Assembly: GCF_008831285.2 (NCBI RefSeq)
Contig: NC_045138.2
Coordinates: 6,386,001 to 6,450,000 of the forward strand
DNA: 64,000 nt
Reading direction: 5' to 3'
Source: Nymphaea colorata
Taxonomy: Eukaryota
Each line of letters begins with the position of its first letter. The stretch's first letter is position 1. Shown here in pieces: positions 1-61,178 of the stretch. The position numbers were made by a program, and so were the translations under genes. The notes beneath the pieces are model-generated. The model did no database searches. It was given only the letters and a program-made list of their open reading frames with translations, and had not been told where the DNA came from.

Positions 1-1900
1 AATAAGCCTTGATTTCGATATGCTTTCTGAGATGGTTGGTCGTTCAGGAAAATCTACTATTAATTAGAACAAAGTGTTTTGAACTTGGTGTTGACTTTTC
101 TTTTATGGAAATTATTATGATGTCCTATCCCTGGGGATTGGGACTAGAAGGCAGCTAGTTCTATTTGGAACTCATGAGGAACTGATGTACAAGTTGAAGC
201 ACAATAGGGCCTGCAGTAAAATCAGGTCTGGTACCCTGGGTAGATGATGCTTTCAGCTATCTTGTTGGGTGGCAGGATAAAAACCTCCTCCAACTCTTTG
301 AACAAATCACAGTGACATTTTATTATGCCAGAGGCAGTTGCTCTTTTCAGTTTTCTTAAACATATCCTTAATAAGGTGATGCAAACTCCTCTGTTGACCA
401 TCACCGTGCCTTCTTAATTAATAGGTTCACCACTCTGCGTAACATGCAAAACAGAAGGCCTTATGCATAAGACAAATCATGGAGCAAACTTTATGAAAGA
501 AGGCTTCAGGCATCAGCTTCTTGTGCTGTAGAAAGAGAGACAATGATATATAAGTTGAAGCGTAGTGAGACTGTTCGCTAAAATCAGGTCTAGTACCCTA
601 GAAAGATGATGCCTTCAACTATCTTGTTTGGTGGCAGGATAAAATACTCCTCTTACTCATTGAACATATCACTGTGATGTCTTATTATGCCCGAGGCAGT
701 TGCTCTCTTTCCATTGGTTGATCCCATACCATGTGCACCACATCATTTTCAGCTTCCTGAAACACAAACTTAATAAGTGATGCAAACTCCTTTGTTGACC
801 CTCCCCACACCTTCTTAATTAATAGGTTCACCACTCCAAGTAACATGCAAGACAAAAGGCCTTATGTACAAGACAAATCATGGAGCAAACTTTATGAAAG
901 AATGTGTCAGGACTGCAGAACATTCTAAATGGGATGCTGATGACCTTATAGATTTCTTTTATAGTAAAGCATGGTGTAATGTGCATGAATGTTATATGAT
1001 TGGTGCCCCCTCCCAAGGTCAAGGAGGAAAAATGTGTGGAGTGTGGTTAGAGGGAAACCAGTGAAGGCTCAACTACTTTGATAAAATTGGAGAAGTGGAA
1101 AGTGGGGTTTTATGATATATAATATTATATGTTATGTTCCATGGCATAGTATATGTCATATAGTTGAATTATAGATAAATATATGTAATGTGTCTTTCAA
1201 ATAAATTCATGTAAGTGATTCATATAAAATCATGTTGTAAGCATGATATATACTCAGATCTAATAGCATGAAAGTACATAGGCAAAATCGCAAAATATGT
1301 ATGTACATATATATATATATATATCATGCAAAAGGCATGAACCATATGTCAAATAAAATAAAATTATTTAAGAAAACAAGTGCAAAAGTAACTTCATCAT
1401 CTGGCACACATTCACAAGCCTAGGATTCATAGAACTTGAGATCACCCTCAACAAGGTCAGTAGGATACTAGGATTTGTCCTCCAAGAATAGAATTTAAAG
1501 AAAAAAATATCTATATGCAGGAAAGGCATTGAAAATTAACATTTTAGGAAACAATACATGTATAAGTAAGAAAGCTCATGCCTCAACGTTGGGATTAACA
1601 AAGATGGCACTTTTAGATTCTAATCTTATTATTGACATCGGATGTTGCCTAATATTTAGCACAACCAACTGTACATTCCAAAGTTCGATTATTCATATCT
1701 ATATTTTCCAAACTTATGCTTTTGCTTCGTTTGAGAGAATAATGTTGGTGGGAAGACCTCATATCCACCGTTGTTTGAATGCTTGGATGTCATAATCTTA
1801 TAAAATGGAAAATATAGTGATAGTTTTCTGTCTGCATTATTCCAACCTTTCATGCAACAAGAAAGTAAAACCACATTGTTCTAAGGACAACATTGGGAAT
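1..1900. repeat. Array core repeat, copy 1 (two diverged sub-variants in tandem at ~181-503 and ~509-902)
   Basis: The motif gttgcaataagcctt...aatctactattaattagaacaaagtgttttg and its downstream sequence recur at ~15084, 27680, 29515, 34830, 40375, 41915, 50125 and 63838. Confidence 0.9.
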
Positions 1901-2104: not shown

Positions 2105-4304
2105 AACTGAGAAATGAGAGTTGGAATGAGAAATGCTATATTCTTCAATTAGAGCACAATTTTTAAGGAGACAAGTTAGCCATTTATGATTCCAAAACTT
2201 TGTCGAGCCTTCTTCAATCCTCCTTTTAATGCTATTGGCAATTCCTTTCGAGCTATTGGAGAGACCTTTAAAGAACCAGAGCCAAGAGGAGTTCTTGAAT
2301 ATCTCATGAGGCCAGAAAGTGTCATTTCAGACGTAATTCTTATGAACAAATTTGGCCCGGGCTTAACTTGAAGCAAACCTGCAAAGCAAGAAGAGCAATT
2401 TGACTTTGACCCACTTCACAAACATCATTAATGTCTTCCCTACCTTCCTTAATCAAGTGACTGATCACATTCCAAGAAATGAGATATCTGAATCCAGTCT
2501 GAGAAGAAGAGTCCCAAAGGAAGGAAGCTATGAGAGATTGGATTTCTTTAATGACCCTCACAAGAAGATGGAATACAACTGTCTAATATTGAATAATGTA
2601 AATTATTACATGATTTATAAGGCACAACCTGCCAAAAAACAAGATGAACCTTCACTTCCAACTGGCATGCTGCTTGTTGACTTTGAGAATTATGCACTCT
2701 CCTCTCTCAACCGGTCTTGGAACAGTGTGACTCCAAGGTAACAAATGGAGAAACTCCTGACCAACCAACCAAGCACAGAGCTAATCCAATGGACCATCAA
2801 ATCCTCCACATGAAATGGGATGAAGACATACTTACTGGAGTTAATCCTAAGCCCCACGCAATTGGACAACTTCTCCAACATAGATTCCATCATTTTCAAG
2901 GGATTGACCTTTGCCTGAAAAAATAGCAGTACATCACACATGAAGGAGGGGATCACTGAACACATACCCTCACGGGGGAAGGGTGTGCGAAGAAAACTCT
3001 TATCTCTAGCATATTTATTGACAAGCCTAAAAAAGGCCTCTATGACAATAATAAAAAGACTAAGGGACAGTGGTCACCCTGCCTCATACCCCGTTTAAGG
3101 TTAAAAAAACTTACCTGGGCTACCATTTACCAAAACTGTTGCCGAAGCAATAGAGACATAGCTGAAAACTCTATCGCAACATTCTTAATTAAACTCTACA
3201 TGTAATAAGGTAAATATAAGGAACAACCAATTCACCCTGTCATAAGACTTTGAGAGATCAGGTTTGAGACAAAGTGTTGGTTTCTTATCCCTATTCATGC
3301 TATGAATGAACTTATGTGCAAGGATGATGTTGTCAAGTATGACTTTATTGGCAGCAAAAACTACTTGGTCATCTAATACAATTGTCTTGAGAACATTCTT
3401 CATTTTGTTGACCATAATTTTTATGATCAATTTGTAGATACTGTTAAATAAAGAAATGGGTTGGAACTTTTGAAGAGTTCTTACACCTTCCTTCTTAGGA
3501 ATAAGAGCGATTGGTGTGCGATTGACCTTTTGAACAAGCCTTCTTATGTAAAAGAACAGTTGTACCACTTTACTCACATCCAGGCCTACAATATGCCAAT
3601 TGGCCTAATAAAAAGAGGCAGGAAACCCATCTAGTCTGGGTTGATATCCCAAAAAGATCGAAAGATTGTACTCTTGTGCTCCTCCAATGTGACGAGCTGG
3701 TTCAGCTCCTCATTTTCACTGCAAGAGACACATGGACATCCACTGTTAGAAAGAGCATGTACCCATCACCCTCTTCGATTCGAAGGAGCTGTTGTAAGTA
3801 CCCTCAGTAAGCTGCTAGGATGGCATGTTGATCCCTAGCCATGGAGCCTTCCACCTCCGGCTCAGTGATGGAACTTCTTTTTCTTCTACATCTGTTAATC
3901 GTCTGGAAATTAGTGGTATTACAATCACCTTCCAACATCCATCTCACCCTAGCCACTGTCTCCAACTGCTATTTTCCTCATCGAGGAACTTTCTTATTTA
4001 TCCCTCAGAATCCTCTCTTCATCTGCATCCACCTACCCTCCTAGATCATGAATCATTTGCAACATAATTAATTAGAACTTTATGGTGTTGATCATAAGTT
4101 CAAATGGTTCAAGCTGACCCTTCCTTTAATGAGCTAGAGGTGGAAGGCCAACTGGGTCGGTTTAAGCCTTCCCAAAAACTTGAGCATGGGCCATCCAAAA
4201 ATGTTCACAACCATTCCTGCGTGTTTACAAACTGGCAATCCAGCCTCTGCTGTAAACATCTAAAGTAATGAAATATCTGAGGCCTAAGAATGTCTCTCTT
4301 GTTG
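2105..4304 (-). mobile_element. Degenerate L1-type LINE ORF2 fragment (reverse transcriptase region), copy 1
   Basis: ORF 3185..3577 reads IALIPKK..FQPISLFNSIYKLIIKIM..DNIILAH..KPDLSKSYDRVNW, typical of plant L1 RT. A RQGD-like motif lies near 3075-3090 and a YLG motif near 2735. Many stops and frameshifts. Confidence 0.92.
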
Positions 4305-4741: not shown

Positions 4742-5318
4742 ATGGAATGGACCACCACTAGAATGATCTGCCTAAACAAAAACAATTGGACTATATAGAA
4801 ATCAAAAATAGAGAATTTTCTCTATTCTAAAGATGTGTATGCACCCATTGAGAACAAGAGGCCAACAAATAAGGCAGATAATAAATAAAAATATTAGATA
4901 AGAAAACCATCCATTGGCACCATTAGACAATGGTTAGACGATAGTGTCCTTCAATTGGTATCGGAAAAGACGAATGCAAAGTTATTGCGGCAGAAGTTGC
5001 ATGATCTTTACGAATAAGAAAACAATTGGAAACAAGGCTTTCTTGTTGAAGCAATTGGTAAATCTCAAACTTAGAGAGGGGAGTCCTGTGTCACAGTATT
5101 TGAAAAAAGTGCAGATCATAATTAATCAGTTGTTAGCCATGAAAATGATGTTAGATAATGAGTTACAGACACTTTTATGGCTAAGTTCTCTTCCAAATAG
5201 TTGGGAGACCCTAATTGTTTCTTTGAGCAACTCTACTCCAGATAGTGTGCTAACAATGAAGCATGTAACCAACAACATTTTAAATTAAAAGACTAGGAGA
5301 AATACTCTTGGTACTTGG
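4742..5318 (+). pseudogene. Ty1/copia gag fragment (Tnt1-like, UBN2/Retrotran_gag_2 type), 3'-truncated
   Basis: ATG at 4742 (MEWTTTRMICLNKNNW...) and ORF 4944..5288 NKAFLLKQLVNLKLREG...LLWLSSLPNSWETLIVSLSNS. Contains internal stops and frameshifts. Confidence 0.88.
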
Positions 5319-5885
5319 TGAGAACCTAGACCCGAATAGCGATTTCTACGCCCAAGAATAGATCCCAAGTCCAGGATCAACTTGCGGGAGCCTAAAGTCC
5401 AAACTTAAGCAAATTATATTTACAAAGCTTTTCCCGCCGGACAGCAACCGCGGCTTAACAGTACCCTGGGTATAAGATACAAGTATGTTTTCCCTGACCC
5501 AAGTCTTCAATCCTATTACAAAACTGAGGGGACTAAGGCTTGTACAAACACGAGCGATACAGATTTAACTCTCACAACTCACTCATCATTCATTCACAAA
5601 CCATTCATACAATCCCAAAGAATGGCCAAACCATGTCCTTTCCCTTTGGTGGTCTAGCTACTCGCAGTTGTGTCTTTGGCAAGGAGCCTTGGAGGGACTA
5701 CCGACAGTAGCAAATGGCTAGAGCCTGGCTCAGAAAGCAAATGCACCCAATAACCCCGTTCTATAGGATGTTTAGAAGTTACCTAGCCGATGAGAGATCG
5801 ACTTAAACAGCAATAGGATCCGAGAGAAAACCAGTGGCTCAGCCACTCTCGGATATAACAGCAAGGAGGTGGAGTGGAGGCCAAA
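5319..5885. mobile_element. Possible LTR-derived non-coding segment truncating the copia gag
   Basis: Starts TG at an abrupt end of gag homology and abuts gypsy pol. No partner LTR seen. Confidence 0.3.
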
Positions 5886-5889
5886 GCTG

Positions 5890-7235
5890 TTTGTTGTGTT
5901 GGTGTTGAAACTCGTTGTTTGAGCATGTATTTAAGGCTGTTCTGATCTGTCTTCACGATGAATCTTCAGCCTATGAGGTAAGGCCTCCATTTCTCAACTG
6001 ACAACACTATGGCAAGAAGTTCTTCCTCATATGTCGATAACGGTTTGGCTCGATTGGTGAGAGCCTTTGACATATATGCTATAAGGTGATTTTCTTGGCT
6101 GAGGACAACTCCTATGCCAATGTCACAAGCATCTGTTTCAATAGTGAAAGGCTTGCTAAAATCGGGCAAGGTGAGAACAGGTGCTGTCATGAGTGCTGAT
6201 TTCAATTTCTCAAATGCTTCTCTTGCTTTGTCTGACCAAGCGAATGATCCTTTCTTAGTCATTTGGGTTAATGGGGCAGCTATGAGCCCCATTAACCCAA
6301 ATGACTAATGGAGCCTTTGTTGTGTTGGTGTTGAAACTCGTTGTTTGAGCATGTATTTAAGGCTGTTCTGATCTGTCTTCATGATGAATCTTCAGCCTAT
6401 GAGGTAAGGCCTCCATTTCTCAACTGACAACACTATGGCAAGAAGTTCTTTCTCATATGTCGATAACGGTTTGGCTCAATTGGTGAGAGACTTTGACATA
6501 TAGGGTGATTTTCTTGGTTGAGGACAACTCCTATGCCAATGTCACAAGCATCTGTTTCAATAGTGAAAGGCTTGCTAAAATCTGGCAAGGTGAGAACAGG
6601 TGCTGTCATGAGTGCCGATTTCAATTTTTCAAATGCTTCTCTTGCTTTGTCTGACCAAGCGAATGCTTATTTCTTAGTCATTCGGGTTAGTGGGGCAGCT
6701 ATGAGCCCGTAGCCTTCAATGAATCTTCTATAATAGCCGGTTAACCCAAGAAATCCACGGAGGCTTTTCAAGTCTTTAGGCAAAGGCCAGTTGTTCATTG
6801 CCTCTAATTTTTCAGGGTCTGCTTTTACCCCTTCTTTGGATACTATGTGCCCAAGATATCCGATTGAGGGTTGGCCAAAGCTGCATTTTGACCCCTTAGC
6901 ATAAAGACGATGTTCCCTCAAAATTTGTAAGGCCATGGTCAAGTGGGCAGCATGTTGCTCTACTGACTGGCTATATACGAGAATGCGATCAAAGAATACC
7001 AAGATGAAGTTTCTAAGATACCTCCTAAACACATCATTCATGCACCTCTGGAATGTGGCGGGTGCATTGGTTAAGCCAAAATGCATCACCAAGAACTCAT
7101 AGTGTCCATCATGAGTTCTAAAAGTTGTTTTTGGAATGTCTTCATCGTGCATTCTAATCTGGTGGTAGAGGAACCGGTTAACACATCTAGAAGTTCGTCG
7201 ATTACCGGTATTGGATGCCGGTCCTTCACGGTTGC
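5890..7235 (-). pseudogene. Ty3/gypsy pol fragment: RT plus tandemly duplicated RNase H region
   Basis: TVKDRHPIPVIDELLD, KTTFRTHDGHYEFLVMHFGLTNAPATFQ, VFFDRILVYS (catalytic DD changed to DR), LRGFLGLTGYYRRF and ETDACDIGIG. RNase H units at ~5890-6289 and ~6316-6708. Confidence 0.95.
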
Positions 7236-8651
7236 CCCATCTGGTGTTACACCAAGAGAAGAAGCCAAGGGCTATGCGATTTGCATTGGGAGGTTGTGAA
7301 CGTATGGCTTAGGTAATGATGGAGTAGGGAGGTATTAAAATGGTCTAATGATGAAGGGGAGAGGTGGCAAGCTTGGAGTTAATCTCTTGAGCTCATGGGT
7401 TGGCTTTAGGGACGGTTACAAGAAGAAAGGGAGGCCAACGGGTAGAGGAGGTGAAGGATGCGAGTGAAGGGGGTGAACCATTGTGGCTGGAGTGTAATGA
7501 TGAGGAGGACACCTGGCTAGGGATGAAATTAACTTACCTTTATGCGTGGCCAAGTGTGGAGCTCTTTAAAATGAGAAGCGTTATATAACGCTTGAACTAA
7601 TGAAGGGAAGCCGAAGGGAAAGAAGAGGAGTGAGCGCCCACAGGTTTGGACTCTTTAACGCTATTCCCTTGAGTTTACCAAACTGCCCTTTTCAAATAAG
7701 CCAGTAATCAATTAGTCAATTAATGACCATGGGCAAACTTGGAATTGGCGGAAAAGATTGGACGCCGATTGGGTTTCGCCGGAGTTAGTGCAGCGTTGAG
7801 TATTTTCGGTGGCAGAAAAGTACGATGCAGGATTGATTGCTGCTGTCGTGGACGAGTTTTCAAGGGGATTAACCAGTCAATTTCGCTGAAATCCTATTGG
7901 TCGTCTACCAATGGAATTCCGACGAGCTCTCTCGGTTTCTCACCTTGAAAATCAGTCCTCTAAGAGCTAGCGTCGATCATCCTTTCCGGCGCTCTTTGTC
8001 TCTGTTTTTAGCAGAGATCAAGGGGCCCACTAGGGACGATTTCAACTAGTCCTCTGCTCCGCTCAAGTAGGGAAGGAGCCGGGAGATTAACGACACCTAC
8101 CTCTTCTCTTGCAGCCGGAGTCTTGTGCTTGGGTACTAGGCGACTAGAGCCACGAGTCGCTCTCCTCCAAGCCTTCCCGATTATCTTCTCCAGCCTCTAA
8201 CTCCTTTCGGGAATGAAGAAGTTGCACAGCGAGAAGATGGCGATTCAGTTGGGGAATTTGTGCGTAGGAAGAAGGTGCTCCAAGAGGATTTCCGATGGCC
8301 TCAAGGAACGTCCTCAAACCTGTTTTACTTCAACCAGAGCCATGGGTTGGAGCCTTTGGATTCCAATCACCGGCGGTAAGACGATGAAGGAAAGAGAGAG
8401 GCGAGAGCCAATGCACACGAAAAAACTCAACTTCTAATTCTTAATTGCATAATGAAAAAAGACTTACAAAAGAGTTTAAGTACTTGAAATAAAACTGGTT
8501 CTTAACATGTGAACCGAGACACTTGCTGAAATGAAATGACTCAACTATAAAGCAAAAGCATAAAAGGAGACCGAGACGAGACGTCTCCAATGTTTAGTGA
8601 GTTTGGCCTCTCCCTCACGGGTTCAGCCATATAACTTGCCTAAGTTCGGCC

Positions 8652-10882
<2,231 letters not shown>

Positions 10883-12729
10883 AAAGTTGAGAGATAGAGA
10901 TGAATAAGGAATAATAAAAGAAATAGAAAAGGTGGCCAATAAAGAGAGAAAAGATCTTAGGGTCGTCATTTGCACCATGCATAACATGAGTCTCTTTGAA
11001 ACCATTGCTCATTGTCTCCTTAAGCAAGGTTTGAGAAGAGCGAGAAGGTGAGAAAGGTAAAAATGAAATATGAAGGAAAAAGAACAAGAAAAATATATAT
11101 GAAAAAGAAAAATGGAGGAAAGAAAACAGAAAGTAGAGGACGTTCCGTTCTCTCTCAACTGTGGCAAGCAAAGGGTGTTCTTATCACAAATGCACATCAA
11201 AAGAAACAAAACTACAAAATTATTCAATATGACATCCAAGCTTTCAAAGAACGGTGGATATGGTTATAGCTTGCCCACTACATGATAAATTATTAGAATA
11301 GATTATCAAAATGCTTTTTGTAGTCCAACGTTAATTATTGATATAATTTTCGGAGTGATTTGAGTTTAGATGCATTTTTCTTTATCAATCAATGCAATGA
11401 GGTGAGGCGAATCATTAAGCCTGTCATGAGGTGAGCGTAAGCATCTAGGAATTGAAGCATAAACATCAGGATCGACATGTTAAAATATATAATATGCACA
11501 AAATTAATGAAAAAATTGAAAGAGAAAAACTAAAATAACAAATATATAAGTAAAAAACTATAAAAAAAACGAATTTGAATCGTGTTAATCATCTTTCATG
11601 CATGCTCACGTAACAATTCTTGTAAAATCCATCTGTCTTAACAATATCTTCCATGTGGAAATTAAAAAATCTCATCTTAACATAATTCACTTGCGTAATA
11701 AAAATAAAATAAACAAAATCGATCCTTAAACTTGAAAAATTAACTGCACATGTATTTCGGTAATAATCAAGAAAACATCATTTCACAACTCAAATATAAT
11801 AGTCACATTGACACATTGATGACAAACCAAAAACAAGGAACTAATATGAGATGCGAAGCGTGAGAACATGCATGTTTCTTTTAGAGAAAATATAATTTAA
11901 CAATTTTAATTAGTATTACATGATTATTTCTGTAAAGAATCTAAGCCATTTGACTCATTCAAAAAATAAGCCCACCCTTACAACATCATTACAGTAGAAA
12001 CTCAAAAGTAAATTTTTATGGAAACAACAATAAAATCACCGACCAATTAATCAGTTCCATTTTAGTGGACAGGTTTTGAAACAAACATAATTAAGCCTAG
12101 AGTCGCACTTGAAACAGACACTTACTATGGCGTCAGAATGTGACCCATATGATTTGTTTGACTATGCTACTTATAATGGTATTCACAAATTCACATAATT
12201 CTACTGGATAATTTGAAGATTCTAAAATCTGAGTCTATTTTTGTAATATAGGAAAAATAACTAAAGTTACAGAAATTTTATGAAGAAGTACATGTTTTAA
12301 AGGGTCGACTCCAAGTGGACTCAATGACCTTTAACACCAGCCATCTCTCTTTCTCTCTCTCTCTCTCTTTGCCACCATCGACAGATCTACTGAGGGCACC
12401 AAAAGGATGGTGCCGTCAGCTGACTAAAGGCATCACCTCTCCACAAAGGGTGGCTGGGAGAAGACATAACCTACCTTCTCAGTGGAGAGTGAGCTGCGTG
12501 CACCACCTTGTGCAAGCAGCAAATGTGCACCCAAAGGTGGATTAAAGTAGTTTGGTAATTTTTAAAAAACCATAATTTTTTCTCCTTTCTACCGACCAAG
12601 ACATTTTGGTCATTATGCACGCTGGTGCACAAGGGTATATATGACCACTTTTGTTTCCAAGACGTAGAATGTTGAATATTCCAAACGCCACCTAAATTAA
12701 AACAAATAGGCTGTGCTTCAATACTTAAC

Positions 12730-12801
<72 letters not shown>

Positions 12802-12867
12802 ACTAGTGAGGCATAAAAAAGACATAGTACCAAAAAGGGCAAAGCTGATTGCAAACGCAAACCTCTG

Positions 12868-12990
12868 CATTGTGCATAGGACCATGTGCATGACATGTAC
12901 CCTCAATAGTGGGCCAAGGAACATTGTGCATAGGACTATGTGCATGACACGTACCCTCAAGAGTGGTCCAGAAAGACACATGTCATGCAC
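12868..12990. repeat. 54-bp tandem repeat, about 2.3 copies
   Basis: cattgtgcataggac(c/t)atgtgcatgaca(t/c)gtaccctcaa(t/g)agtgg repeated head to tail. Also present at ~61620-61742. Confidence 0.85.
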
Positions 12991-13396
12991 CGTATAATCA
13001 CCTCTCCACAAAGGGTGGATGGGAGAAGATGTAACCTACCATCCTATGGGAGAAGATGCACCGTATAATCCTGTTAAATGTCATTTTAGGGGAGAGATGG
13101 TGACAAACACATTAGTATTAGATTAAAATTGAGGTTCTCATGTTGAAGTGGTTGTTAATTATTAAATGAGAATGGATTTCATAGAATTCATTTTTGAGGT
13201 GGAGATTCTTAAAGAATGCAATGCAAGGTGATAAATTGCTCTTTCCTATGTTGTGATTTAGAACAATTGTTATTCTCATGACAAGTTTAAGTGGACCTAT
13301 CAAATCATGCTAGTATATTTATTAATGGTTACTAGTTGGAGTTGGGCCTATGGTTTAAGAAATGGGCATAGTTTTGTTTTTGTTTCATGCATACTT

Positions 13397-13789
13397 GTTC
13401 CACCCTGCCGATTGTATAATTCTTTATGTTTTGATTCTTCAACTTTCATAGAACTGTGATCAAGCTCAGGACTCTTTTCTCAAAGGTAAATTATTCAAGT
13501 TGGTCACGCTTCCATCTAGATCTCCAGTAGGAAACTGTCGCACTTGAGGAGATGTGTCGATTTTGTTATTGCCAAATCTTGCAGTCTCCGTTTCCTCATT
13601 TAGTGGCAATAAGAAAATCGACACATCTCCTCAAGTGCAATGGTTTTCTACTGGAGATCTAGATGAAAGCGTGACCAACTTGAATAATTTACCTTTGAGA
13701 AAGAGTCCTGAGCTTGATCACAGTTCTATGAAAGTTAAGAATCAAAACATAAAGAATCACCATTCCAGATACAATTGGCAGGGTGGAAC
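13397..13789. repeat. Long inverted repeat (arms ~180 bp, 29-nt loop)
   Basis: 13397-13574 is the near-perfect reverse complement of 13604-13789. Confidence 0.97.
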
Positions 13790-15005
13790 TTTATGACAGG
13801 AATGCAACAGGTCGAGAGGAGATGTACACTAAGATCGTGCATACTAATGAATGTGAAACAGGTCAAGACTCACATGGTAGCAACAGCAACAGGCACTTCC
13901 AATCCATTGTTGGCAGAAATATACCACCAACAGCAACTGATGATGAGAATTTGCTCTACTTTTCCGTAATTTTCTTCCAAAATTTGACCGCACTCAGGCT
14001 GTTAATCAAATTGGATCAAGTCTAGAGTGTGCTGCTCCAGCAGATGAGTTTGTGAACAGATAAAAAAAGCTGTTTTGAGCAATGATCATTCTCAGAACTT
14101 TTGTGCATGGCAGAATCATCAATGTTCAAAGGTCTATATGCAAACATGAGTCACTGTGGGTCACATGGAGAGCACGTTCGAAACGCTTCTGACCAGTTGC
14201 TGCATGAAAAGCGAAAAACAAACTTGGATAAGGTAAAAGTTAATAACCTATTTTTTATTGCAATATCAAGCAGTCATGGTATTATGTGAACTGGAAGTCT
14301 TCATACAAATTTGTCGATCTGCTCTTAGAACCTCTGAATAACTAATTCCATAGAATGACAATGAAATATTTCAAAAGCTATAGTGCCCTTCAAAAAGAAA
14401 AAAATTATTCAAAACAATGGGAGAATGTTTTGCAGACAGAAAAGAGATAATTGATTTGGCAATTATGAAAACGCAGCTGCGAATATGCAACAACTTTTAA
14501 CAATTTTCTGATTTTAAAAACTCATATTCACTTGTTGGATTTTATGGTCACTTTCTTTACACGCACCTAAAGGTCCTCTTTCCTGCTTCCATTTACATTA
14601 ATACCTTTAGATTCCTCGCTCATCACACTCAGCAGCCTTTATATTTTTTCCTTCAGTCTAGCTGCCACTAATTCCTACTAGTGCAAGATAATCTCTGAAA
14701 AGTGATTAGAATAAAGCATAGGGTGCCACCATCCTGCCTCATGTGTCGGAGAAGAAATACGAACACTAACAGATGAACAACTGAAATCCTTGCAAGTTTT
14801 AGGAGCAGGGCCTTCACTTGAAATAGACAATTTCCCTAAGGTAAATGGTGAGAGCAAGACTTCATCAGTGGAAGACACATCCTCCATCATAATCTTTGCA
14901 CAGGAGGCAGATAGAATCAGTTCTGTAAACAAAGCAACAGACCCAGATGGGCTTCTTGGCAAGTTTGGGGACTGCAAGCAATGTCATCTCTTCTCTTTCC
15001 TGTAG
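13604..15005 (+). pseudogene. Unidentified two-exon protein-coding gene fragment (disrupted)
   Basis: Consecutive protein-like ORF pieces end at AAG|GTAAAA (14232/14233). An AT-rich intron ends TTTTTTCCTTCAG (14656), followed by coding-like sequence (..EEIRTLTDEQLKSLQVLGAGPSLEIDNFPKVNGE..) to TAG at 15005. No family recognised. Confidence 0.5.
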
Positions 15006-15083
15006 AACTTTGTGGCATGAAACCATGGTTCACTTGGGAAGTTTCATTCAGAGAACACGTATTTTTTTCTTCGATGAAGTTGC

Positions 15084-18000
15084 AATAAGCCTTGATTTCG
15101 ATATGCTTTCTGAGATGGTTGGTCGTTCAGGAAAATCTACTATTAATTAGAACAAAGTGTTTTGAACTTGGTGTTGACTTTTCTTTTATGGAAATTATTA
15201 TGATGTCCTATCCCTGGGGATTGGGACTAGAAGGCAGCTAGTTCTATTTGGAACTCATGGGGCACTGATGTACAAGTTGAAGCACAATAGGGCCTGCAGT
15301 AAAATCAGGTCTGGTACCCTGGGTAGATGATGCTTTCAGCTATCTTGTTGGGTGGCAGGATAAAAACCTCCTCCAATTCTTTGAACAAATCACAGTGACA
15401 TTTTATTATGCCAGAGGCAGTTGCTCTTTTCAGTTTCCTTAAACATATCCTTAATAAGGTGATGCAAACTCCTCTGTTGACCATCACCGTGCCTTCTTAA
15501 TTAATAGGTTCACCACTCTGCGTAACATGCAAAACCGAAGGCCTTATGCATAAGACAAATCATGGAGCAAACTTTATGAAAGAAGGCTTCAGGCATCAGC
15601 TTCTTGTGCTGTAGAAAGAGAGACAATGATATATAAGTTGAAGCGTAGTGAGACTGTTCGCTAAAATCAGGTCTAGTACCCTAGAAAGATGATGCCTTCA
15701 ACTATCTTGTTTGGTGGCAGGATAAAATACTCCTCTTACTCATTGAACATATCACTGTGATGTCTTATTATGCCCGAGGCAGTTGCTCTCATACCATGTG
15801 CACCACATCATTTTCAGCTTCCTGAAACACAAACTTAATAAGTGATGCAAACTCCTTTGTTGACCCTCCCCACACCTTCTTAATTAATAGGTTCACCACT
15901 CCAAGTAACATGCAAGACAAAAGGCCTTATGTACAAGACAAATCATGGAGCAAACTTTATGAAAGAATGTGTCAGGACTGCAGAACATTCTAAATGGGAT
16001 GCTGATGACCTTATAGATTTCTTTTATAGTAAAGCATGGTGTAATGTGCATGAATGTTATATGATTGGTGCCCCCTCCCAAGGTCAAGGAGGAAAAATGT
16101 GTGGAGTGGTTAGAGGGAAACCAGTGAAGGCTCAACTAGTTTGATAAAATTGGAGAAGTGGAAAGTGGGGTTTTATGATATATAATATTATATGTTATGT
16201 TCCATGGCATAGTATATGTCATATAGTTGAATTATAGATAAATATATGTAATGTTTCTTTCAAATAAATTCATGTAAGTGATTCATATAAAATCATGTTG
16301 TAAGCATGATATATACTCAGATCTAATAGCATGAAAGTACTTAGGCAAAATCGCAAAATATGTATGAACATATATATATATATATATCATGCAAAAGGCA
16401 TGAACCATATGTCAAATAAAATAAAATTATTTAAGAAAACAAGTGCAAAAGTAACTTCATCATCTGGCACACATTCACAAGCCTAAGATTCATAGAACTT
16501 GAGATCACCCTCAACAAGGTCAGTAGGATACTAGGATTTGTCCTCCAAGAATAGAATTTAAAGAAAAAAATATCTATATGCAGGAAAGGCATTGAAAATT
16601 AACATTTTAGGAAACAATACATGTATAAGTAAGAAAGCTCATGCCTCAACGTTGGGATTAACAAAGATGGCACTTTTAGATTCTAATCTTATTATTGACA
16701 TCGGATGTTGCCTAATATTTAGCACAACCAACTGTACATTCCAAAGTTCGATTATTCATATCTATATTTTCCAAACTTATGCTTTTGCTTCGTTTGAGAG
16801 AATAATGTTGGTGGGAAGACCTCATATCCACCGTTGTTTGAATGCTTGGATGTCATAATCTCATAAAATGGAAAATATAGTGATAGTTTTCTGTCTGCAT
16901 TATTCCAACCTTTCATGCAACAAGAAAGTAAAACCACATTGTTCTAAGGACAACATTGGGAATTTTTTATTCTTTTACACCAACTCTCCACCGTATATTG
17001 TTTCCTCATGAGATCCCAAATGTCCCTACCGTGACCTATTTTACAAGTTTGCCATGATGACGTAGTTTGTTAGGAGTTCCCCTAATAGTAGGGATAGTTT
17101 TCCCTATCCCCTTCAAAAGACTCCAAACTGAGTTTTGGCATATAAGGTCAAAATGCAGCATTTGATTAACTGAGAAATGAGAGTTGGAATGAGAAATGCT
17201 ATATTCTTCAATTAGAGCACAATTTTTAAGGAGACAAGTTAGCCATTTATGATTCCAAAACTTTGTCGAGCCTTCTTCAATCCTCCATTTAATGCTATTG
17301 GCAATTCCTTTCGAGCTATTGGAGAGACCTTTAAAGAACCAGAGCCAAGAGGAGTTCTTGAATATCTCATGAGGCCAGAAAGTGTCATTTCAGACGTAAT
17401 TCTCATGACAGCACCTGTTCTCACCTAGCCAATGAGAGATCGGCTTAAACAGCAATAGGATCCGAGAGAAAATCAGTGGCTCAGCCACTCTCGGATATAA
17501 CAGCAAGGAGGTGGAGTGGAGGCTAAAGCTGTTTGTTGTGTTGGTGTTGAAACTCGTTGTTTGAGCATGTATTTAAGGCTGTTCTGATCTGTCTTCACGA
17601 TGAATATTCAGCCTATGAGGTAAGGCCTCCATTTCTCAACTGACAACACTATGGCAAGAAGTTCTTCCTCATATGTCGATAACGGTTTGGCTCGATTTGT
17701 GAGAGCCTTTGAAATATATGCTATAGGGTGATTTTCTTGGCTGAGGAAAACTCCTATGCCAATGTCACAAGCATCTGTTTCAATAGTGAAAGGCTTGCTA
17801 AAATCGGGCAAGGTGAGAACAGGTGCTGTCATGAGTGCTGATTTCAATTTCTCAAATGCTTCTCTTGCTTTGTCTGACCAAGCGAATGATCCTTTCTTAG
17901 TCATTTGGGTTAATGGGGCAGCTATGAGCCCCATTAACCCAAATGACTAATGGAGCCTTCGTTGTGTTGGTGTTGAAACTCGTTGTTTGAGCATGTATTT

Positions 18001-18756
18001 AAGGCTGTTCTGATCTGTCTTCATGATGAATCTTCAGCCTATGAGGTAAGGCCTCCATTTCTCAACTGACAACACTATGGCAAGAAGTTCTTTCTCATAT
18101 GTCGATAACGGTTTGGCTCGATTGGTGAGAGACTTTGACATATAGGGTGATTTTCTTGGTTGAGGACAACTCATATGCCAATGTCACAAGCATCTGTTTC
18201 AATAGTGAAAGGCTTGCTAAAATCGGGCAAGGTGAGAACAGGTGCTGTCATGAGTGCCGATTTCAATTTTTCAAATGCTTCTCTTGCTTTGTCTGACCAA
18301 GCAAATGCTTCTTTCTTAGTCATTTGGGTTAGTGGGGCAGCTATGAGCCCGTAGCCTTCAATGAATCTTCTATAATAGCCGGTTAACCAAAGAAATCCAC
18401 GGAGGCTTTTCAAGTCTTTAGGCAATGTTCATTGCCTCTAATTTTTCAGGGTCTGCTTTTACCCCTTCTTTGGATACTATGTGCCCAAGATATCCGATTG
18501 AGGGTTGGCCAAAGCTGCATTTTGACCTCTTAGCATAAAGACGATGTTCCCTCAAAATTTGTAAGGCCATGGTCAAGTGGGCAGCATGTTGCTCTACTGA
18601 CTGGCTATATACGAGAATGCGATCAAAGAATACCAAGATGAAGTTTCTAAGATACCTCCTAAAAACATCATTCATGCACCTCTGGAATGTGGCGGGTGCA
18701 TTGGTTAAGCCAAAAGGCATCACCAAGAACTCATAGTGTCCATCATGAGTTCTAAA
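15084..18756. repeat. Near-identical second copy of 1-7122 with a 3.44-kb internal deletion
   Basis: 15084-17403 matches 1-2340 (offset 15083, then 15063 after a 20-bp deletion). 17423-18756 matches 5781-7122. Confidence 0.97.
17532..18756 (-). pseudogene. Duplicated Ty3/gypsy RT-RNase H fragment
   Basis: ORFs 17608..17934, 18171..18425 and 18418..18807 are nearly identical to those at 5966-7152. An extra small frameshifting deletion lies near 18425. Confidence 0.95.
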
Positions 18757-19099
18757 CTGTGGTTGCAAACTATCAAAAAAAAAATTGAAAGTAAAATGTG
18801 GTTGCAAACTATCAAAAATAATTTCAATATTGAGTTATTACTTGAGTTTTGGTCTTAGTGAAGTCAATAAATGAAAATTAAAATTTAGATCTTAAGAAAG
18901 AGATATTTGAAACAATGAAAAAAAGGAAAAAAAGGAAAACATTTTAAGTCAAGAGGAATAACAAGAAAGAAAGAGATTTTGAAAAGAAAAAAAGAAAAAT
19001 TTTAAAGAGAGAGAGAAGAGGATGTACATGTGTGTGTGTGTAAAGTTGTATATATATGCGTATATGAAAGTTTATAAAAGGAAGATCTTAAATTTAAGA

Positions 19100-23080: not shown

Positions 23081-24633
23081 ATATCACGACTCAATGCCAA
23101 TGATACGTGTGGGAACATGGTGAAATCAACCGAATATCTGAATGATATTCAGCTCCTCGACAATGGAAACAGAGTTTCTCTGGTTGAGAATGTCTACTGG
23201 AGAATGTCACCCATCAATTCAGTTAGGAGATTTCTTTACAAGCTAGAAGGTAGTTCCTATTCCAATTCATTATAAAACATAGAGAAAAATACTCATTTTC
23301 CTTAATTTACATAACCTTACTTCCATTGAGTATTGTTTCAAGACATGGAACCAATGCCCTTTACAAAAACTATTTATCCTCGTTGGCACAAAGGCAGTAA
23401 CAAAAGAAAGCCTAAATTTTAGGGCGCTGATTATGTAACAAATTAATTTATGTGGGGGAACCACTATGCAAATAAAATAAATTGTGTGGTTCTAGATGGG
23501 CACACCACACCCAGCTCTACCATTAAGCTAACTGATAATAAGTTGGTGCACATCATAATATATTACACTTAACTTATGGATTTATAGAAGAACGTAAGAC
23601 TTAGTTGTTAAAGTATATATACTCAACAGGAAGGTTATTCGGATTATCTCACATTTTCTTCAGTAGCCAAATTAATTAAATATTGGGAAATATTTTCTCT
23701 CTATTGAAGGAACTAAGAGTTGGTGACTTCAAATGGATATTCACAATGTCTTTCTTCATAACGTATCTTCAGTGAGGTAGAGATTGATATGCAAATTGAA
23801 TATACTGTTGTACGGACTTAAATAATGTCCTTGGAATTGTTGGGTGAGCAACAAGAATATAATATCATACAGCGGCAAACAAGAGAAACGAAACCCCCAC
23901 CCTTCACCCATCCCCCAGGTACCAGGTCTGCTTGAGTGCTTTCGGTGGTGAATTAATACACAATTTAGTGATGCTTAGAAGGTAATATTAAGAACAGTAT
24001 GATTACCTAGTTAAGAAGTGTTCACCTCAAGTATTTATTCAACAACATAAGAGTGACCCTTATTAATATTTCCCTTCTTAAGTTATAAACAAAAAGTAAC
24101 CCCAGAAAAACAGAAAATTTGTTCTAATGATTTTCATATATAATTAAAGTAATAGCCATATTTATTCAAATATGTGTGGTATAGATTCTCTGTCACTAAA
24201 TAAGAAAGAGAGTTGATCATGATATAGATTCTCTTATCCAAATCCGATTCGATAGCATTTATGTTCTACAGCACCTCATGAATTTGAAAATCTCATATTC
24301 TCGAGTTGTTCCAGTCCAACTTGGTTATAAATATGTAATTCATATTGTTAATTCGATGAGAATCAATCTACAAATTCTGAAATATGAGATCTATATAAAG
24401 CTAAAAAATATTAAATAAGACGTTTTCTCAATGCAAAAAGGAAAATTAAGTATTTCAAGTGTAGATTTTAAATCGAATCTAAAATAGATTCTTTCAAGAA
24501 CTATGGATTTTACCGGGATCTTTTGCTATAGCCTATTGTTTACTTGGCGAGGCTAGTTTTATGCCTTGAACAACTTTTGTAGGGCAGTAGATCATACCAT
24601 AAAAAGCGGGCAGGTAAATAGGAAAATGAATAC

Positions 24634-25037
24634 CTGCTCTGCTGCCATGGTGTAAACCGGTGATGTTTTTCCCGCTGCATGATAGAATAACTGCTTTGCT
24701 GCCTCCTTTTCCAGCTTTGGCAATGGATAAATTTCATCCACTATATTCTTTTTCATCTTTTCTCTAGAGATGACGATGGTTTTTAGACGCTCTGTCCTAA
24801 ACAAGAGATTCTTCAGATCCTTCTCAGACCAAACATCATCTAAGACAATCAAACGATTCCCAGAGCACTTAATTTGCTGCTCACTCAGCCCATGCGCTAT
24901 CTGCCTCACAGCATCTTTTACGTCTTCAAACCTGGGCACCTCTCCACCAAGCAACTGAGACCATATTCTTTTGAGAATGTCCAGTGTATCTGGCGATCTC
25001 GAAACCGTGAAATAGAAGATATTCTTACCGAACGAGC
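24634..25037 (-). pseudogene. Isolated NB-ARC exon of an RPW8-type helper NLR (NRG1/ADR1-like)
   Basis: NIFYFTVSRSP (RNBS-A), VPRFED..DAVRQ, LIVLDDVW (kinase-2), KTIVISR (RNBS-B) and YPLPKL..EAAKQLFYHAA (RNBS-C). Stop-free and bounded by CAG| and |GTATTC. No P-loop, RPW8 or LRR exons nearby. Confidence 0.88.
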
Positions 25038-25051
25038 CTGACAACAGCCGA

Positions 25052-26619
25052 CCCAGATTTTCAGGCAGACCCCTAAACGTGTGACTAAAATAAAAAAAAG
25101 CTGTTCACTTCCATTTTAAAAAGAGTGACCATGTAGGAAAAGAATAACCTTCATAGAATCAAACAACAAGACAGTAAATGTCATTTTTTGTGAATAATTA
25201 GGAAAACTTATTTTACATCAAAAAATAGAAATAAAAATGTTCTATTTTTATCAAACGAAGCTTATAATTAATCATATTTAAATTTGATAAAATAACTTAA
25301 AGTTCAAAGATAAAAAAGTAGTTGCACTTTAGATTTAGTTATCTAATTTATCTCCTGGAGGTAACATATGACATTAGCAAGGACACAATTCTGAGTATTG
25401 CAAATGGGCCAAATCTGGGTCACGAGCTATTTGAGACCACCATACATAAACCAACATAATCAGATCTAGATCTGGTATGGAAACTATCTGAGGATTCAGA
25501 TCTAATACCTCTTTAGCACGAACACGCAACCCATTTGGCTGGTCAATGGTCACCCTCATAAAGTCTCAAAAGTAGGGATATAAACGGGCCAGGCATATCA
25601 GATTATCAAACAAATACCGAATCCATGGACGTGGTAAAAAAAAATTAGATCCATTCAAATTTAAATTCAAATACGGTTTGCTGTTTCACCACTAAACATA
25701 AATTAGAATAACGTACCCACCAGTATCCGATAAAGATCCTATCTACATAATGAAGCTGGATCTTACATTAGTCGGATCCGAATTAGGTTTTCCAAAAAAT
25801 CAGCTCAGGATTCAAATTTGAATTATTCAAATATGCGTAGTTAAGTTAGTTAAAAATTAAACCCAACACGAAACCAAAACTATATTGCAACCTAAAAGTC
25901 AAGACACAAGACAACTGGTGTAGAATTTTTCTGTTTTAAATTATTTCTCTTTGTTTAATTAGAAGTAACATAGTCTTTTTAAGTATGTCTTGACATTTTT
26001 TATTTACAATTTTTTCCGTAAACTTATGTGCAAATTTTCAAATATTAGTCAGTCTTTTGTGACAGATCAAAGTTGAGCAGTTTGCTGTAAAGGCCTCACA
26101 CATAAATGAATGAATTAGATCAATAATAAACAAATAAATGGATCACTTGATTTACTAGGCAAAGGTCTAAGCATAATGTTCTTGTTGTCTACCTACCTGT
26201 AAACTTCATCATGAAAGTTCCACAGTCAAAAAATTCCAGAGCATGTTATAAAAACTTTACAGCATCAACTGAATAAATTTTTTGATATATATTTTTCCAT
26301 AGATGCTGCTATATTTTTTGAAGTAAGAAGACATAACTTTAGTCTCTAAGCAGTGGCACATTCAAGAGGATGGCATAACTTTATCAGCTGCAATTCCTAC
26401 ATGTTAATGTGAGAGGAAAGACTCAAAGACCAGAGCAAGTTAAAACGAAATGACCCACAACATTGGCATGCTCGTCCAAAACCTTTTTGAAAACTTTTTA
26501 ACCTATTTGTAAAGCATTGTAAATGGGCCAATCGTATTAGCTTCAATAATGACACATTCCATCTACTTCATGGGAGAGAGAAAGGCATCTCCTCTGCTTT
26601 CCATTCTCTTTCTTCTTTC

Positions 26620-37359: not shown

Positions 37360-38229
37360 CGGAGGATTCTCAACTCTCCATCCATTCACTACCCATGGAG
37401 CACTCCTGAGGCACATTCATAAAAAAATCTGGAAATGAGGAAAATGGGTTTCTTCTCAACCTGTTAGCTTTTTGGATATTCTGTTACTAAAGAAGGCGCT
37501 GATATAATAAAATTTGTTAGGGTTCATGTAGATGTGGCCTGATCTGATACAGAAAGCCAAGGAATGAGGCTTGGATGTTATCCAAACTTATGTTTCTGGA
37601 ACGGCCATGAGCCCTCTCCTGGGAAGGTAACATTTCGTTTCCTTCTACTTCCAGATTCTCTTTTAGTGGTACTTGTTCTTTTCTTTTCTTGTTTTTTGGT
37701 GGATAGGTTCATAATGTTGTCCTATATATTTCTGTCATTTGCAGTGTTATTTTGTGGGCAGATATTCGGTTCAAAGCTGGTTCATCAAGCCGGCCTCTAT
37801 GTTCACTTGTGGATTGGTCCTTATATTTGTGCTGAATGGAATTTTGGGTCAGTCTTGATTTTATCTGCAAATTAGAATGTTCACATTCCGTTGCTTGGAT
37901 TTGGATTTAATGATTTGTGCATTAACTTCGTTTTGATATTACAGAGGATTACCGGTTTGGTTGAGGTATGTACATGGTATCAGCTTTAGAACTGACAATG
38001 ATTCTTTTAAGGTATTTTTTTGCTTTGTTGCCTCTAGCTGTTTAAGAATTTTCTGCTGGCGACATGTTTAGATCTAGTGAAATGAAAAAGTGGGCCGTGA
38101 TGAGTTTCTGTTTCATTTTTTTTTTGAATTATGAAGGCTGCAAGGAAGGGATTCACTCAAAAGATTGTTGAGATGATGAAAGCTGAAGGGCTGTTCGAGA
38201 CTCAAGGAGGACCAATCATCTTTTCACAA
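37360..38229 (+). pseudogene. BGAL: Beta-galactosidase (glycoside hydrolase family 35) 5' fragment, exons 1-5 with introns
   Basis: Exons 37360-37410 RRILNSPSIHYPWSTPE; 37532-37626 [30 protein letters not shown] (stop and frameshift); 37745-37847 ..[25 protein letters not shown]; 37945-38011 GLPVWLRYVHGISFRTDNDSFK; 38137-38229 [31 protein letters not shown]. Borders are AG/GT except a GC at the first donor. Confidence 0.95.
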
Positions 38230-38534: not shown

Positions 38535-39526
38535 ATTAAAAGAATAAAAAAAAAAGTGATGGGTGTTTTTGTCATCTAATATTAGCTCACACGTTTTCTC
38601 ATTGTTTTTTTTCAACAGTCTAAAAGTGAATGATGAATGGCCCTGAATAGCATTCATTCACTCACTATATATGTGTATATATTTCTGTATTTGATGTTGT
38701 GGCACATTGTGTGGCGGACAGAAGCTACAGTAAGTGAATTTTGTTTTATTTATGCACATGTAACATCTCTCTCTCTCCCTCCCTCTCTCACGTGTGTGGT
38801 TTTTCTTTTTGTTTCTTTTTTTTTCTCTTTTTGTTCTTGAGAGATAGCTAACTAACCAGATATTTTTTTTTCCATATATAACTTAATGTATAATTTCATT
38901 TAAAAATTTTAAAGCCATAATTTGAAGAGCGGTTTGAAACCGTCAGCCTTTATAGAAATTTCCTTTTTCCCCCTATAAACCAACAAACGTTGGTTAAGTG
39001 TAACGCTCAGTTGCCGTGTTGCATAACATTTCCAGGAGAAACCAGTAACCTCTTTAAAAGGTGTTTAAACACCCTTTTTATCTTTTTCATGCTATGGCCA
39101 GTTGCACCTTTTGATTTATTTGTTATCTTCAATTTCAAATACCTCGGCTATCGTCTTTTGCAAGTTCATATAAAAATTTCAATGAGCACTGTTACGAATT
39201 CAATAAGGGAAAAAGTAAGGGTCGTCTTGGGTATTCGATTAGTTTTAGGACCTAGTTTCCTTTTATGTCCATACCATCCTTTTTTCCACGAAAAGTGTTG
39301 GAAACTTTGATGGTGTTTCTCCCTCGAACATTTTCGAGGGAGAAACACCATCAAAGTTTCCAACACTTTTCGTGGAAAAAAAGATGGTTACACTTAACCA
39401 ACATTTGTTCGTTTATAGGGGCAAAAAGGAAATGAAATTATACATTAAGTTATATATGAAAAAAAAATATCTGGTTACTTTGCTATCTCTCAAGAACAAA
39501 AAAGAAACAAAAAGAAAAACCACACA

Positions 39527-39562
<36 letters not shown>

Positions 39563-39801
39563 CGAGAGAGAGGGATGTTACATGTGTATAAATAAAATTA
39601 AATTCACTTACTATAGCTTCTGTCCGCCACACAATGTGCCACAACATCAAATGCAGATATATATACACATATATAGTGAGTAACTATTCAGGGCCATTCA
39701 TCATTCACTTTTAGACTGTTGAAAATAAAAATAATGAGAAAAGATGTGGACTAATATTAGATGACAAAAACACCCATCACTTTTTTTTTTATTCTTTTAA
39801 T
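38535..39801. repeat. Large nested inverted repeat (outer arms ~370-420 bp; inner hairpin with 56-bp arms)
   Basis: 38535-38900 pairs with 39430-39801, 38958-39004 pairs with 39388-39434, and 39273-39328 pairs with 39333-39388. Confidence 0.95.
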
Positions 39802-46300: not shown

Positions 46301-46304
46301 GAAG

Positions 46305-48300
46305 TTGTTTAGAAAAGCATTTTCAACATCTACTTGAAAAATATGCCATTGTTTAGTAGAAGCAGCTGCAATAAGAGTTCTAATAGAGGTTATTCGAGCA
46401 AACAGAACAAAAGTTTCTTCATAGTCAATCCCATATTCTTGAGCATTGCCCTTAGCGACAAATCTAGCCTTATACCTTTCTAATTTACCTCCACCTCTAG
46501 TTTTGACCTTATAGATCCACCTATATCCTATGGTCTTTTTTCTTGTAGGTAAAGAAACAATTTCCCAAGTCTCATTACTTTCGATAGCTTTAAGCTCAAG
46601 ATTCATGGCTTCATTCCAATTTGGATCTTCCTTAGCCTCACAATAAGATGAAGGCTGACAAAAATAATGATGTGCCATAAAACAAGCTCGGTGTTTATGA
46701 GAAAAGCATTCATATGGAATAAATATTTGGTGTGGTCTAACATGCCTTTGAGACTTTCTAGGATTGGATTGGTTAGTTTCTTAAGCTGCATGACTCCTTT
46801 AAATATAAACAATAATATCCCCAAAGGATCATCATTTGTAGAACTTTCTTTTCCAATTTCTTCAACTTGATCCTCATCATTAGAATCATCATCATCACCA
46901 AAATCAGTCCATACAAAAACATAATCCTCTAGTTGCTTGGATTCATTCTTAATGCCATCTTCATCTTCCAAAAATATCACATTTCTAATAACATAAACTT
47001 TGTCCTTCTCAATATCATAGCATCTATAACCATTTTGTGTTTTTGAGTAACTAATGAACACACAATTAATGGCTTTAGAGGAAACTTTATCATTTTGGTC
47101 ACTGAAAACATAACATTACAGCAAAAGCCTTAAGTCTATTATAATTTGGCTTCATATTGTATAATCTTTCAAATGGAGAAATATGTTTCAAGATTATCGT
47201 AGACATTCTATTAATCGGCTAGGATGATTTAGAACAGTTTCAGCCCAAAAAGTTTTTAGGAACATTTTTGGATAAGAGAAGTGCTCTTACAGTTTGAATA
47301 ATGTGTCTATGCTTTCGTTCAGCCACTCCATTTTGTTGTGGAGTCTTTGGACAAGATTTTTTATGTAAGATGCCTTTGCCTTTTAGAAATTGTTCAAATT
47401 CATTGGAAATAAACTCACCTCCCGAATCATTTCTCAACTCATCATACAATTGTATAAATCAAACTTCCTAGGCTTGTCAGAATGTGCCTTATTTGTCAAA
47501 GCTATTTTTTCCCACCTTAAGGAGCACTTATACATGACACTATTTCCAATTCTGTGTTCTTTTATCTTTCCACACCTTAAGGAGCACTTATACATGACAC
47601 TTATACATGTGCCTTCTTTTATGAGAATAGAAGTTTTCTTGCATGTTTAAGTTTCCTCACCAAGTTGGACATATGATTCTCTCTTGTCCTCAGTGAACAT
47701 AAGAGTACCATATGAAAAGACGACTGACTTCTACAAGCTCAACAACAGGGACATCATAGAACAATATAATAGAGCTTAGGCCAGCTTTGCCAGAACTTCA
47801 TTAAGAGCAAAGATAGTCTAAAAGTAGTATTTCTCTACTTCTGGCAAGCTCCTTATCTTGACTGCATGATCAAGCTGACCAACAAAAGAAGTGATCATCA
47901 GAATCCTCAAAATAAACCAGACACATGTTTTAAGGAACAAGTGTTGCTGATGACAAAAAAAAGTGTCCTTCCTAGAAATGCCCCAGCTCATGGAATCTGA
48001 GCCTCGAAATAAAATGTTTCAACCCTCACTATCCATACTTGATGAAAATCAACTCACCCCTATGCATCTCTATTTCAATCCTCGTATTTTGCTTGACGCA
48101 ATAGATCCTCTCCACGTCAAATCTTTGCATCTTTGCCCCTCCACCATAGGTAACCATTGCTCTCTCCCTCTCCCATCAGTGTTTGTCTGTTGTTTAGAGA
48201 GGCCTTGCAAAGCAGCCATATTTTTGTGTAGGTTTGTGAAGGTGGAGGAGTGATTCTGGAAGAGTGAAGGCTTTTTGTGCAGGCCTGTGAGAGAAGGAGA
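46305..48300 (-). mobile_element. Degenerate Ty1/copia pol fragment (integrase, linker, RT N-terminus)
   Basis: DSGGEFIS..SCPKTPQQNGVAERKHRHI (integrase), FISYSKTQNGYRCYD, and WNEAM..E..AIESNETW..WIYKVK..RYKARFVAKG..Q..GIDYEETF..QVDVENAFL (RT). The right boundary is approximate. Confidence 0.92.

Positions 48301-59586: not shown

Positions 59587-59661
<75 letters not shown>

Positions 59662-61122: not shown

Positions 61123-61178
<56 letters not shown>

Follow-up and report, generated by a model that had tools for sequence, protein, structure and literature searches.

A candidate template-switch inverted repeat of a ROS1/DEMETER DNA demethylase gene in Nymphaea colorata

The hairpin, its donor gene and the insert that carries it

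The window, by which we mean the whole 64-kb stretch of Nymphaea colorata DNA analysed here, contains a hairpin inside a composite insert, and a second copy of the whole segment runs off the end of the window (Table 1). An earlier note, written from the sequence alone, had read this hairpin as an inverted duplication of a protein-coding gene fragment, with arms of about 180 bp differing by few mismatches and a 29-nt loop. The geometry was borne out, with arms of 178 and 186 nt and a loop of 29 nt, as was the proposed origin, since both arms correspond to ROS1/DME codons ~836–895.

Table 1. Features of the ROS1/DEMETER-derived insert and its second copy (positions in the window; ~, approximate).
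Feature	Position	Strand	Remarks
Composite insert	~11197–15032		3.8 kb; ends approximate
Inverted piece of neighbouring repeat family, in insert	11228–11262	-	35 nt
Non-coding part of insert	11263–13396		microsatellites, short tandem repeats
ROS1 piece 1 (left arm and loop)	13397–13603	-	~codons 826–895
Left hairpin arm	13397–13574	-	178 nt; inverted ROS1/DME coding sequence, ~codons 836–895 of P0001 (tblastn)
Loop	13575–13603	-	29 nt; single-copy ROS1 coding sequence, ~codons 826–836
ROS1 piece 2	13604–14948	+	codons 838–1096
Right hairpin arm	13604–13789	+	186 nt; forward ROS1/DME coding sequence from codon 838
Rest of ROS1 exon after right arm	13790–14232	+	up to codon 1046; frameshifts, stop
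Retained ROS1 intron	14233–14795	+	GT donor intact; acceptor AA in both copies
Start of following ROS1 exon, truncated	14796–14948	+	codons 1047–1096
ROS1 piece 3 (second inverted piece)	14949–15030	-	~codons 555–584; tblastn E 1e-9
Second copy of whole segment	59566–64000	+	cut by window end; hairpin at 62149–62542

The earlier note had proposed naming the donor gene by sequence search, and this search led to ROS1/DEMETER. The reading frame of the right arm matches P0001, a Nymphaea colorata ROS1-like DNA glycosylase (E 1.8e-17), at 91% identity across 55% of the query, and this was the sole match among 99 candidates. The cluster of P0001 includes the N. thermarum DEMETER protein (P0003). Using tblastn, the right arm showed 93% amino-acid identity over 45 residues, and the best segments of the window pieces were 83–93% identical in amino acids to Nymphaea ROS1/DME proteins and 55–73% identical to the Victoria relative P0004. 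The window pieces also share a five-residue stretch with N. thermarum that the N. colorata protein does not have. Judged by these sequence matches, the fragment was derived from a Nymphaea gene for a 5-methylcytosine glycosylase of the ROS1/DEMETER type.

Only codons ~555–584 and ~826–1096 are represented in the window, i.e. the variable middle of the protein, and the tblastn and contig comparisons both revealed frameshifts and a stop in these pieces, so the enzyme cannot be made. A functional ROS1/DME glycosylase was rejected as an explanation of the locus, with the frame broken and the catalytic domains (HhH-GPD, permuted CXXC and RRM_DME, at residues 1179–1700 of P0001) absent. A protein search at near-equal length found no short annotated fragment, and Pfam gave nothing significant on the fragment ORFs (158 of 223 long frames were scanned overall).

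The three ROS1 pieces alternate in orientation (inverted, forward, inverted; tblastn), with the fold-back point at 13603/13604. Intact-ROS1 reads and contigs of relatives depart from the window at 13603 (62355 in copy 2) in runs X21, X1, X2 and X6. Since they leave there and the tblastn frame is unbroken through the loop, the loop belongs with the left arm and is donor coding sequence continuous with it on the minus strand. Reads of relatives in X21 and X24 also depart near 14948 and at 15030 (loose ends 14953 and 15030), and six reads follow the intact gene as it goes on differently after the truncated exon. The splice donor that the earlier note had placed at 14232, after an exon-like extension of the right arm, is in use in the intact gene: RNA-like contigs from X1 and X6 splice out of the window copy after this position into the next exon. 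At the other end of the intron, all eight X21 reads covering position 14795 carry G in place of A, giving AG in expressed reads and AA in both window copies. Retention of this intron implies that the fragment was copied from DNA and not from mRNA, and a processed pseudogene or retrocopy was rejected on the same ground.

The insert stands in place of ~200 bp of a local repeat unit across which six other repeat members run straight, and the ROS1 pieces make up its right half. Its 35-nt inverted piece matches 1760–1794 and 16823–16857 at 94% on the opposite strand. No Pfam match and no ROS1 match were found in the non-coding part. We detected no terminal inverted repeat (TIR) or target-site duplication (TSD) at the insert ends and no significant inverted match between 11150–11700 and 14500–15100, where the longest word shared by the ends is 7 nt.

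The surroundings hold retroelement fragments, NB-ARC and LRR fragments and several segmental duplications. The retroelement fragments (2693–3604, 4938–5285, 5781–10747, 17423–18834 and 45239–47115) include copia-type gag, copia-type RT and SH3, as well as what look like a Gypsy-type pol, duplicated in part, and a LINE-like RT. An NB-ARC fragment (24595–25104) and an LRR fragment (43501–44145), both on the minus strand, belong to NLR resistance genes, and the region resembles an NLR cluster in decay. A short plus-strand match to glycosyl hydrolase 35 (beta-galactosidase) at 37543–37872 may represent a further captured gene fragment or a lone exon. The long inverted repeat at 38535–39801 (~370-bp arms, 85%) is probably a fold-back or Mutator-like element, and it encloses a 116-nt palindrome at 39273–39388 that is close to perfect, with a loop of 4 nt (-94 kcal/mol). 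Old inverted repeats (69–77%) lie at 49078–50054, 48442–48793 and 58547–59233, the first of them built from the repeat family that received the ROS1 insert.

Folding, duplication and divergence of the hairpin

Folding of the 393-nt hairpin of copy 1 confirmed the structure suspected in the earlier note, with a minimum free energy of -289.1 kcal/mol (z -37.1) that was equalled by 0 of 100 shuffles. The hairpin folds on either strand (-280 to -293 kcal/mol) and its stem is kept within a 1.2 kb context, where 172 of the 178 bases of the left arm have their partners in the right arm. Over its ~175 bp the stem remains ~95% paired, with unbroken helices of 21–59 bp. Aligning the two arms of copy 1 gave 168 matches against 8 substitutions and 12 gap columns; one left-arm deletion accounts for 10 of these columns, and the left arm also carries a 1-nt insertion (tblastn and arm alignment). 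The left arm had been described as lacking ~10 bp and as the derived one of the pair; the 10-nt deletion is real, but both arms have changed. Rfam returned 0 matches at the gathering score across the whole 64-kb window.

The hairpin of copy 2 folds to -291.5 kcal/mol, and its arms differ from each other by 10 substitutions and 11 gap columns. The earlier note had seen some mismatches of copy 1 pair correctly in copy 2; this holds at 13512 and at the 13736 gap, but copy 2 adds mismatches of its own. The duplication itself, noted earlier at 62149–62541, is present, but the unit duplicated is ~4.5 kb and not the hairpin alone: 10772–15246 and 59566–64000 differ by 87 substitutions and 14 indels. 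The 10-nt deletion and 1-nt insertion of the left arm, together with several substitutions, are common to both copies, indicating that the fold-back came before the duplication and that neither library preparation nor assembly produced the palindrome. Additionally, window positions 1–163 match the flank downstream of both copies without a difference (other family members match in 72–94% of aligned columns), and 1–2345 differs from 15084–17408 at 15 of 2325 sites. This near-identity to the flank predicts a third hairpin copy, which probably lies ~1.3–1.7 kb before the window start.

Comparing copy 1 with copy 2 gave 6 differences in 186 sites for the right arm (3.2%) and 12 in 443 for the adjoining exon (2.7%); the left arm and loop have 1 in 207 and their upstream flank has 4 in 595. 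The contrast between the left arm plus loop and the right arm (p = 0.056) counts weakly against neutrality. Over a longer stretch, the ROS1 pieces at 13604–15030 diverge at 45 of 1425 sites (3.2%) as opposed to 26 of 2291 (1.1%) in the upstream insert at 11201–13603 (p 2e-5), with a peak of 6–7% at 14796–15030. Gene conversion or clustered mutation are possible causes of the faster divergence in 13604–15030. We rejected a shift in divergence placed precisely at the fold-back, as the best change-point falls near 14830.

No compensatory double change between the arms was seen among the ~10 changes available from two copies, and we found no arm-specific conservation and no conserved 21-nt island. 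Of the eight distinct arm transitions counted from the alignments, six still allow G-U pairing when the plus strand is folded, which is no significant sign of selection for such pairing on one strand (p = 0.29). Given the frameshifts, the stop, the dead acceptor, the lack of compensatory change and a right arm that diverges like exon, we predict from two copies and ~10 changes that the hairpin is probably a near-neutral relic.

Transcription and small-RNA potential

The transcript survey compared eight of 24 candidate runs, among which there was no small-RNA library. Four of the eight were of raw RNA and four of contigs, and sequence matching the window was found in six of them, with none in the raw RNA runs X22 and X23. 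No read and none of the contigs listed in these six runs bridges a hairpin junction, and none of the runs is shown to be of the same genotype. The reads that fall on the window (59 in X21 and 772 in X24) come from intact ROS1 genes, with none at 99% identity or above and none over 12800–13415. Contigs on the window numbered 25 in X1, 28 in X2 and 13 in X6, and those listed sit on the ROS1 pieces, except for one X6 contig on the upstream tandem repeat. Run X20, the kind of which is not recorded, contains a 493-nt contig at 61627–62117 with one difference from copy 2; it ends 32 nt before the left arm and is the sole near-identical outside support for the insert. Reads and contigs alike show the donor ROS1 to be expressed in relatives. 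In the 1.2 kb upstream of the hairpin there is a single TATA-like motif, which is not evidence of a promoter, and a sigma-70 scan, a model irrelevant for a plant, stayed at chance level.

The earlier note had put the hairpin forward as a proto-miRNA or hpRNA candidate. With its length of 393 nt and its long unbroken helices, it looks like an siRNA-type inverted repeat and not a miRNA precursor, and if transcribed it would be expected to yield a mixture of siRNAs that match ROS1, and not a miRNA. Long near-perfect hairpins, e.g. IR71 and Mu killer, are described as being cut by DCL2/3/4 into siRNA populations (PMC10827316). At most 78 of the 135 21-mers in the right arm of copy 2 are without a listed difference to an expressed ROS1 contig of X1; the arms are thus still close to the expressed gene, and siRNAs from them could reach ROS1. 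In maize, captured fragments are reported to send siRNAs to their donor genes, with syntenic donors keeping their expression (10.1101/777037), which tempers expectations for an effect on ROS1.

Origin of the hairpin and comparison with known systems

We think it fairly probable that the hairpin is a fold-back, template-switch inverted repeat of ROS1/DEMETER that was duplicated with its flanks, is probably near-neutral and would give at most mixed 21–24-nt siRNAs. Repair synthesis at a DNA break may have copied along the donor ROS1 gene and switched strand several times at short matches. One such switch, at a short imperfect inverted repeat 29 nt apart, would have left the intervening bases as the loop, and the product would then have been joined into the break in a repeat-rich, NLR-fragment-bearing region. 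A later segmental duplication could have copied the insert with its flanks. Read-through from either strand would produce the ~175-bp stem, and its processing by DCL2/3/4 a population of siRNAs matching the variable middle of the ROS1 mRNA and the gene body, with at most local methylation or a mild knock-down as the outcome.

A fold-back break insertion is supported by the alternating pieces, the retained intron, the loss of target sequence, the insert ends free of TIR and TSD, and the 35-nt piece of a neighbouring repeat. As in known break insertions, pieces of one locus, here three, occur with inverted orientation and a short gap, here 29 nt, and ~200 bp of target is missing relative to six family members, with no TSD. 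Junction overlaps, judged by eye against the transcripts of relatives, amount to four of six letters at the fold-back, 2 at 14947–14948 and ~3 at 15030, and are compatible with template switching and also short enough to be chance. In yeast, insertions at double-strand breaks have a comparable layout, in which two parts of a single locus lie inverted to each other, a small gap apart and sharing 2–11 nt of microhomology (PMC11724301). However, those described there are experimental mutants with smaller pieces, whereas the Nymphaea insert is natural and kilobase-sized, has at least three switches and was later duplicated.

Capture by a DNA transposon (Pack-MULE, Helitron or CACTA), with the fold-back arising meanwhile and any siRNAs being ordinary transposon cross-talk, is an unlikely alternative in our judgement. 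The insert does lie within a repeat family that forms the long inverted repeat at 49078–50054, and intron-containing fragments in repeat-rich DNA, with siRNA cross-talk to their donors, are well described for Pack-MULE and Helitron captures (10.1101/777037). On the other hand, the insert removes part of a repeat and is not located between the repeat's ends, no TIR or TSD marks the ends of the ROS1 insert, and kilobases of flanking sequence are common to the copies, as expected of segmental duplicates. A built-in hairpin also differs from such captures in that it would not need RDR2. Pack-MULEs have TIRs and an 8–11-bp TSD around the captured fragment, and Helitron captures have a 5' TC, a 3' hairpin with CTRR and insertion at AT. 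A Pack-MULE was rejected, as the insert ends carry neither TIR nor TSD; a larger transposon, its ends lying beyond those of the insert, may instead have captured the fragment. That the arms are instead the terminal repeats of a MITE, or a palindrome artefact of assembly or library, seems extremely unlikely. Nothing speaks for a MITE, and for an artefact just the lack of a bridging read and the chance that the tandem copies, ~2% apart, represent two haplotypes, but the arms are ROS1 coding sequence, are ~5% apart plus indels, and have their junction and derived differences in common between copies. A MITE in particular, which would have non-coding TIRs, a TSD and many dispersed copies, was rejected: the arms are ROS1 exon, and the two copies seen in the window are carried by the same duplicated segment.

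A rival reading is that the hairpin is transcribed as an endogenous inverted repeat and that its siRNAs have a measurable regulatory effect on ROS1/DME in trans, by cleavage or gene-body RdDM, as Mu killer has on MuDR; this we consider doubtful. The near-perfect stem with helices up to 59 bp, the right-arm 21-mers free of listed differences to expressed ROS1 (at most 78 of 135), the expression of the donor in relatives and the retention and multiplication of the locus into two, probably three, copies all fit such regulation, as does the targeting of ROS1/DML genes by small RNAs in other plants (PMC5940787). Against it stand the six runs, none shown to be of this genotype, in which no read or listed contig bridged a junction, the lack of compensatory evolution, and an upstream 1.2 kb in which the one TATA-like motif gives no promoter evidence. 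A young MIRNA gene, with one dominant miRNA/miRNA* duplex directed against ROS1, is very improbable. MIRNA genes are documented to arise through inverted duplication of their targets (10.1101/2024.07.25.605110), and many 21-nt windows of the stem satisfy the duplex rule (at most 5 mismatches and no asymmetric bulge above 3 nt), which is trivial for a long inverted repeat. However, at 393 nt the hairpin is longer than the 300-nt limit given at warning level for plant MIRNA precursors (PMC12594335), near-perfect long stems are DCL2/3/4 substrates (PMC10827316), and there is neither an Rfam match nor a conserved 21-nt island. The read criteria for plant MIRNA genes call for one miRNA/miRNA* duplex that has 2-nt overhangs and is backed by 10 or more reads, with a precision of at least 75% (PMC12594335).

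Among known systems, the hairpin has by its sequence the structural features of an endogenous inverted repeat (endoIR) that arose when a gene was duplicated in inverted orientation, and such repeats built from gene fragments are a kind already known. Like Arabidopsis IR71 and maize Mu killer, it is a long near-perfect fold-back from duplicated sequence that could yield 21/22/24-nt siRNA populations matching its donor (PMC10827316). These endoIRs are shown to be transcribed and processed, whereas the ROS1 hairpin is known here from its sequence; the stem of IR71 is ~3 kb (PMC10827316) and that of the ROS1 hairpin ~175 bp; and the duplicated sequence in Nymphaea comes from a host gene for a demethylase and not from a transposon.

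Our literature search, with subscription journals and supplements outside its scope, found no paper on this Nymphaea hairpin locus. Young MIRNA genes reportedly arise from inverted duplication of their target genes, a model associated with Allen (2004), and target-exon hairpins are the proposed first step in plant miRNA gene birth. Clear cases are rare, with two in A. halleri by the criteria of one study (10.1101/2024.07.25.605110). In such genes, of which Aha-miR217 is an example, both arms come from a single exon of a protein-coding gene and one of the two copies reaches further, as is seen here. The ROS1 hairpin differs from such genes in exceeding 300 nt, in having no known mature miRNA and in being part of a scrambled insert of several pieces. 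With its junctions kept, it shows how a fold-back could form in one step with donor sequence as the loop. ROS1/DML genes are reported as miRNA targets in Arabidopsis, Nicotiana and Salvia, and miR402 and miR7972/Nb_miRC1_3p are aimed at this same family (PMC5940787). These are validated 21-nt miRNAs of Arabidopsis and Lamiids for which no sequence relation to the hairpin is implied, and the origin of MIR7972 is described in that paper as unknown (PMC5940787).

What makes the locus interesting is the identity of the donor, a member of the enzyme family that erases DNA methylation. It is conceivable, but highly unlikely, that it represents a natural RNAi locus against a DNA demethylase in an early-diverging flowering plant, in which case a single repair accident would have given rise to a methylation rheostat with several copies that acts in trans. 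In such a rheostat, falling methylation or opening of the region by ROS1/DME would allow the hairpin to be transcribed, and its siRNAs would in turn lower ROS1/DME. Without expression, the hairpin would be ordinary, if tidy, repair debris; if siRNAs are made, its presence or absence among Nymphaea genotypes would amount to a natural knock-down experiment.

DME-type activity has been invoked for maternal CG hypomethylation in water-lily endosperm (PMC12619087), and four DME-like transcripts in one clade are described for N. thermarum (10.1101/2021.04.04.438399). In our survey, six X21 reads join 14062 to 14683, with the same continuation in X1 and X6 contigs, suggesting that a second ROS1-like gene or isoform uses part of the intron retained in the window as exon.
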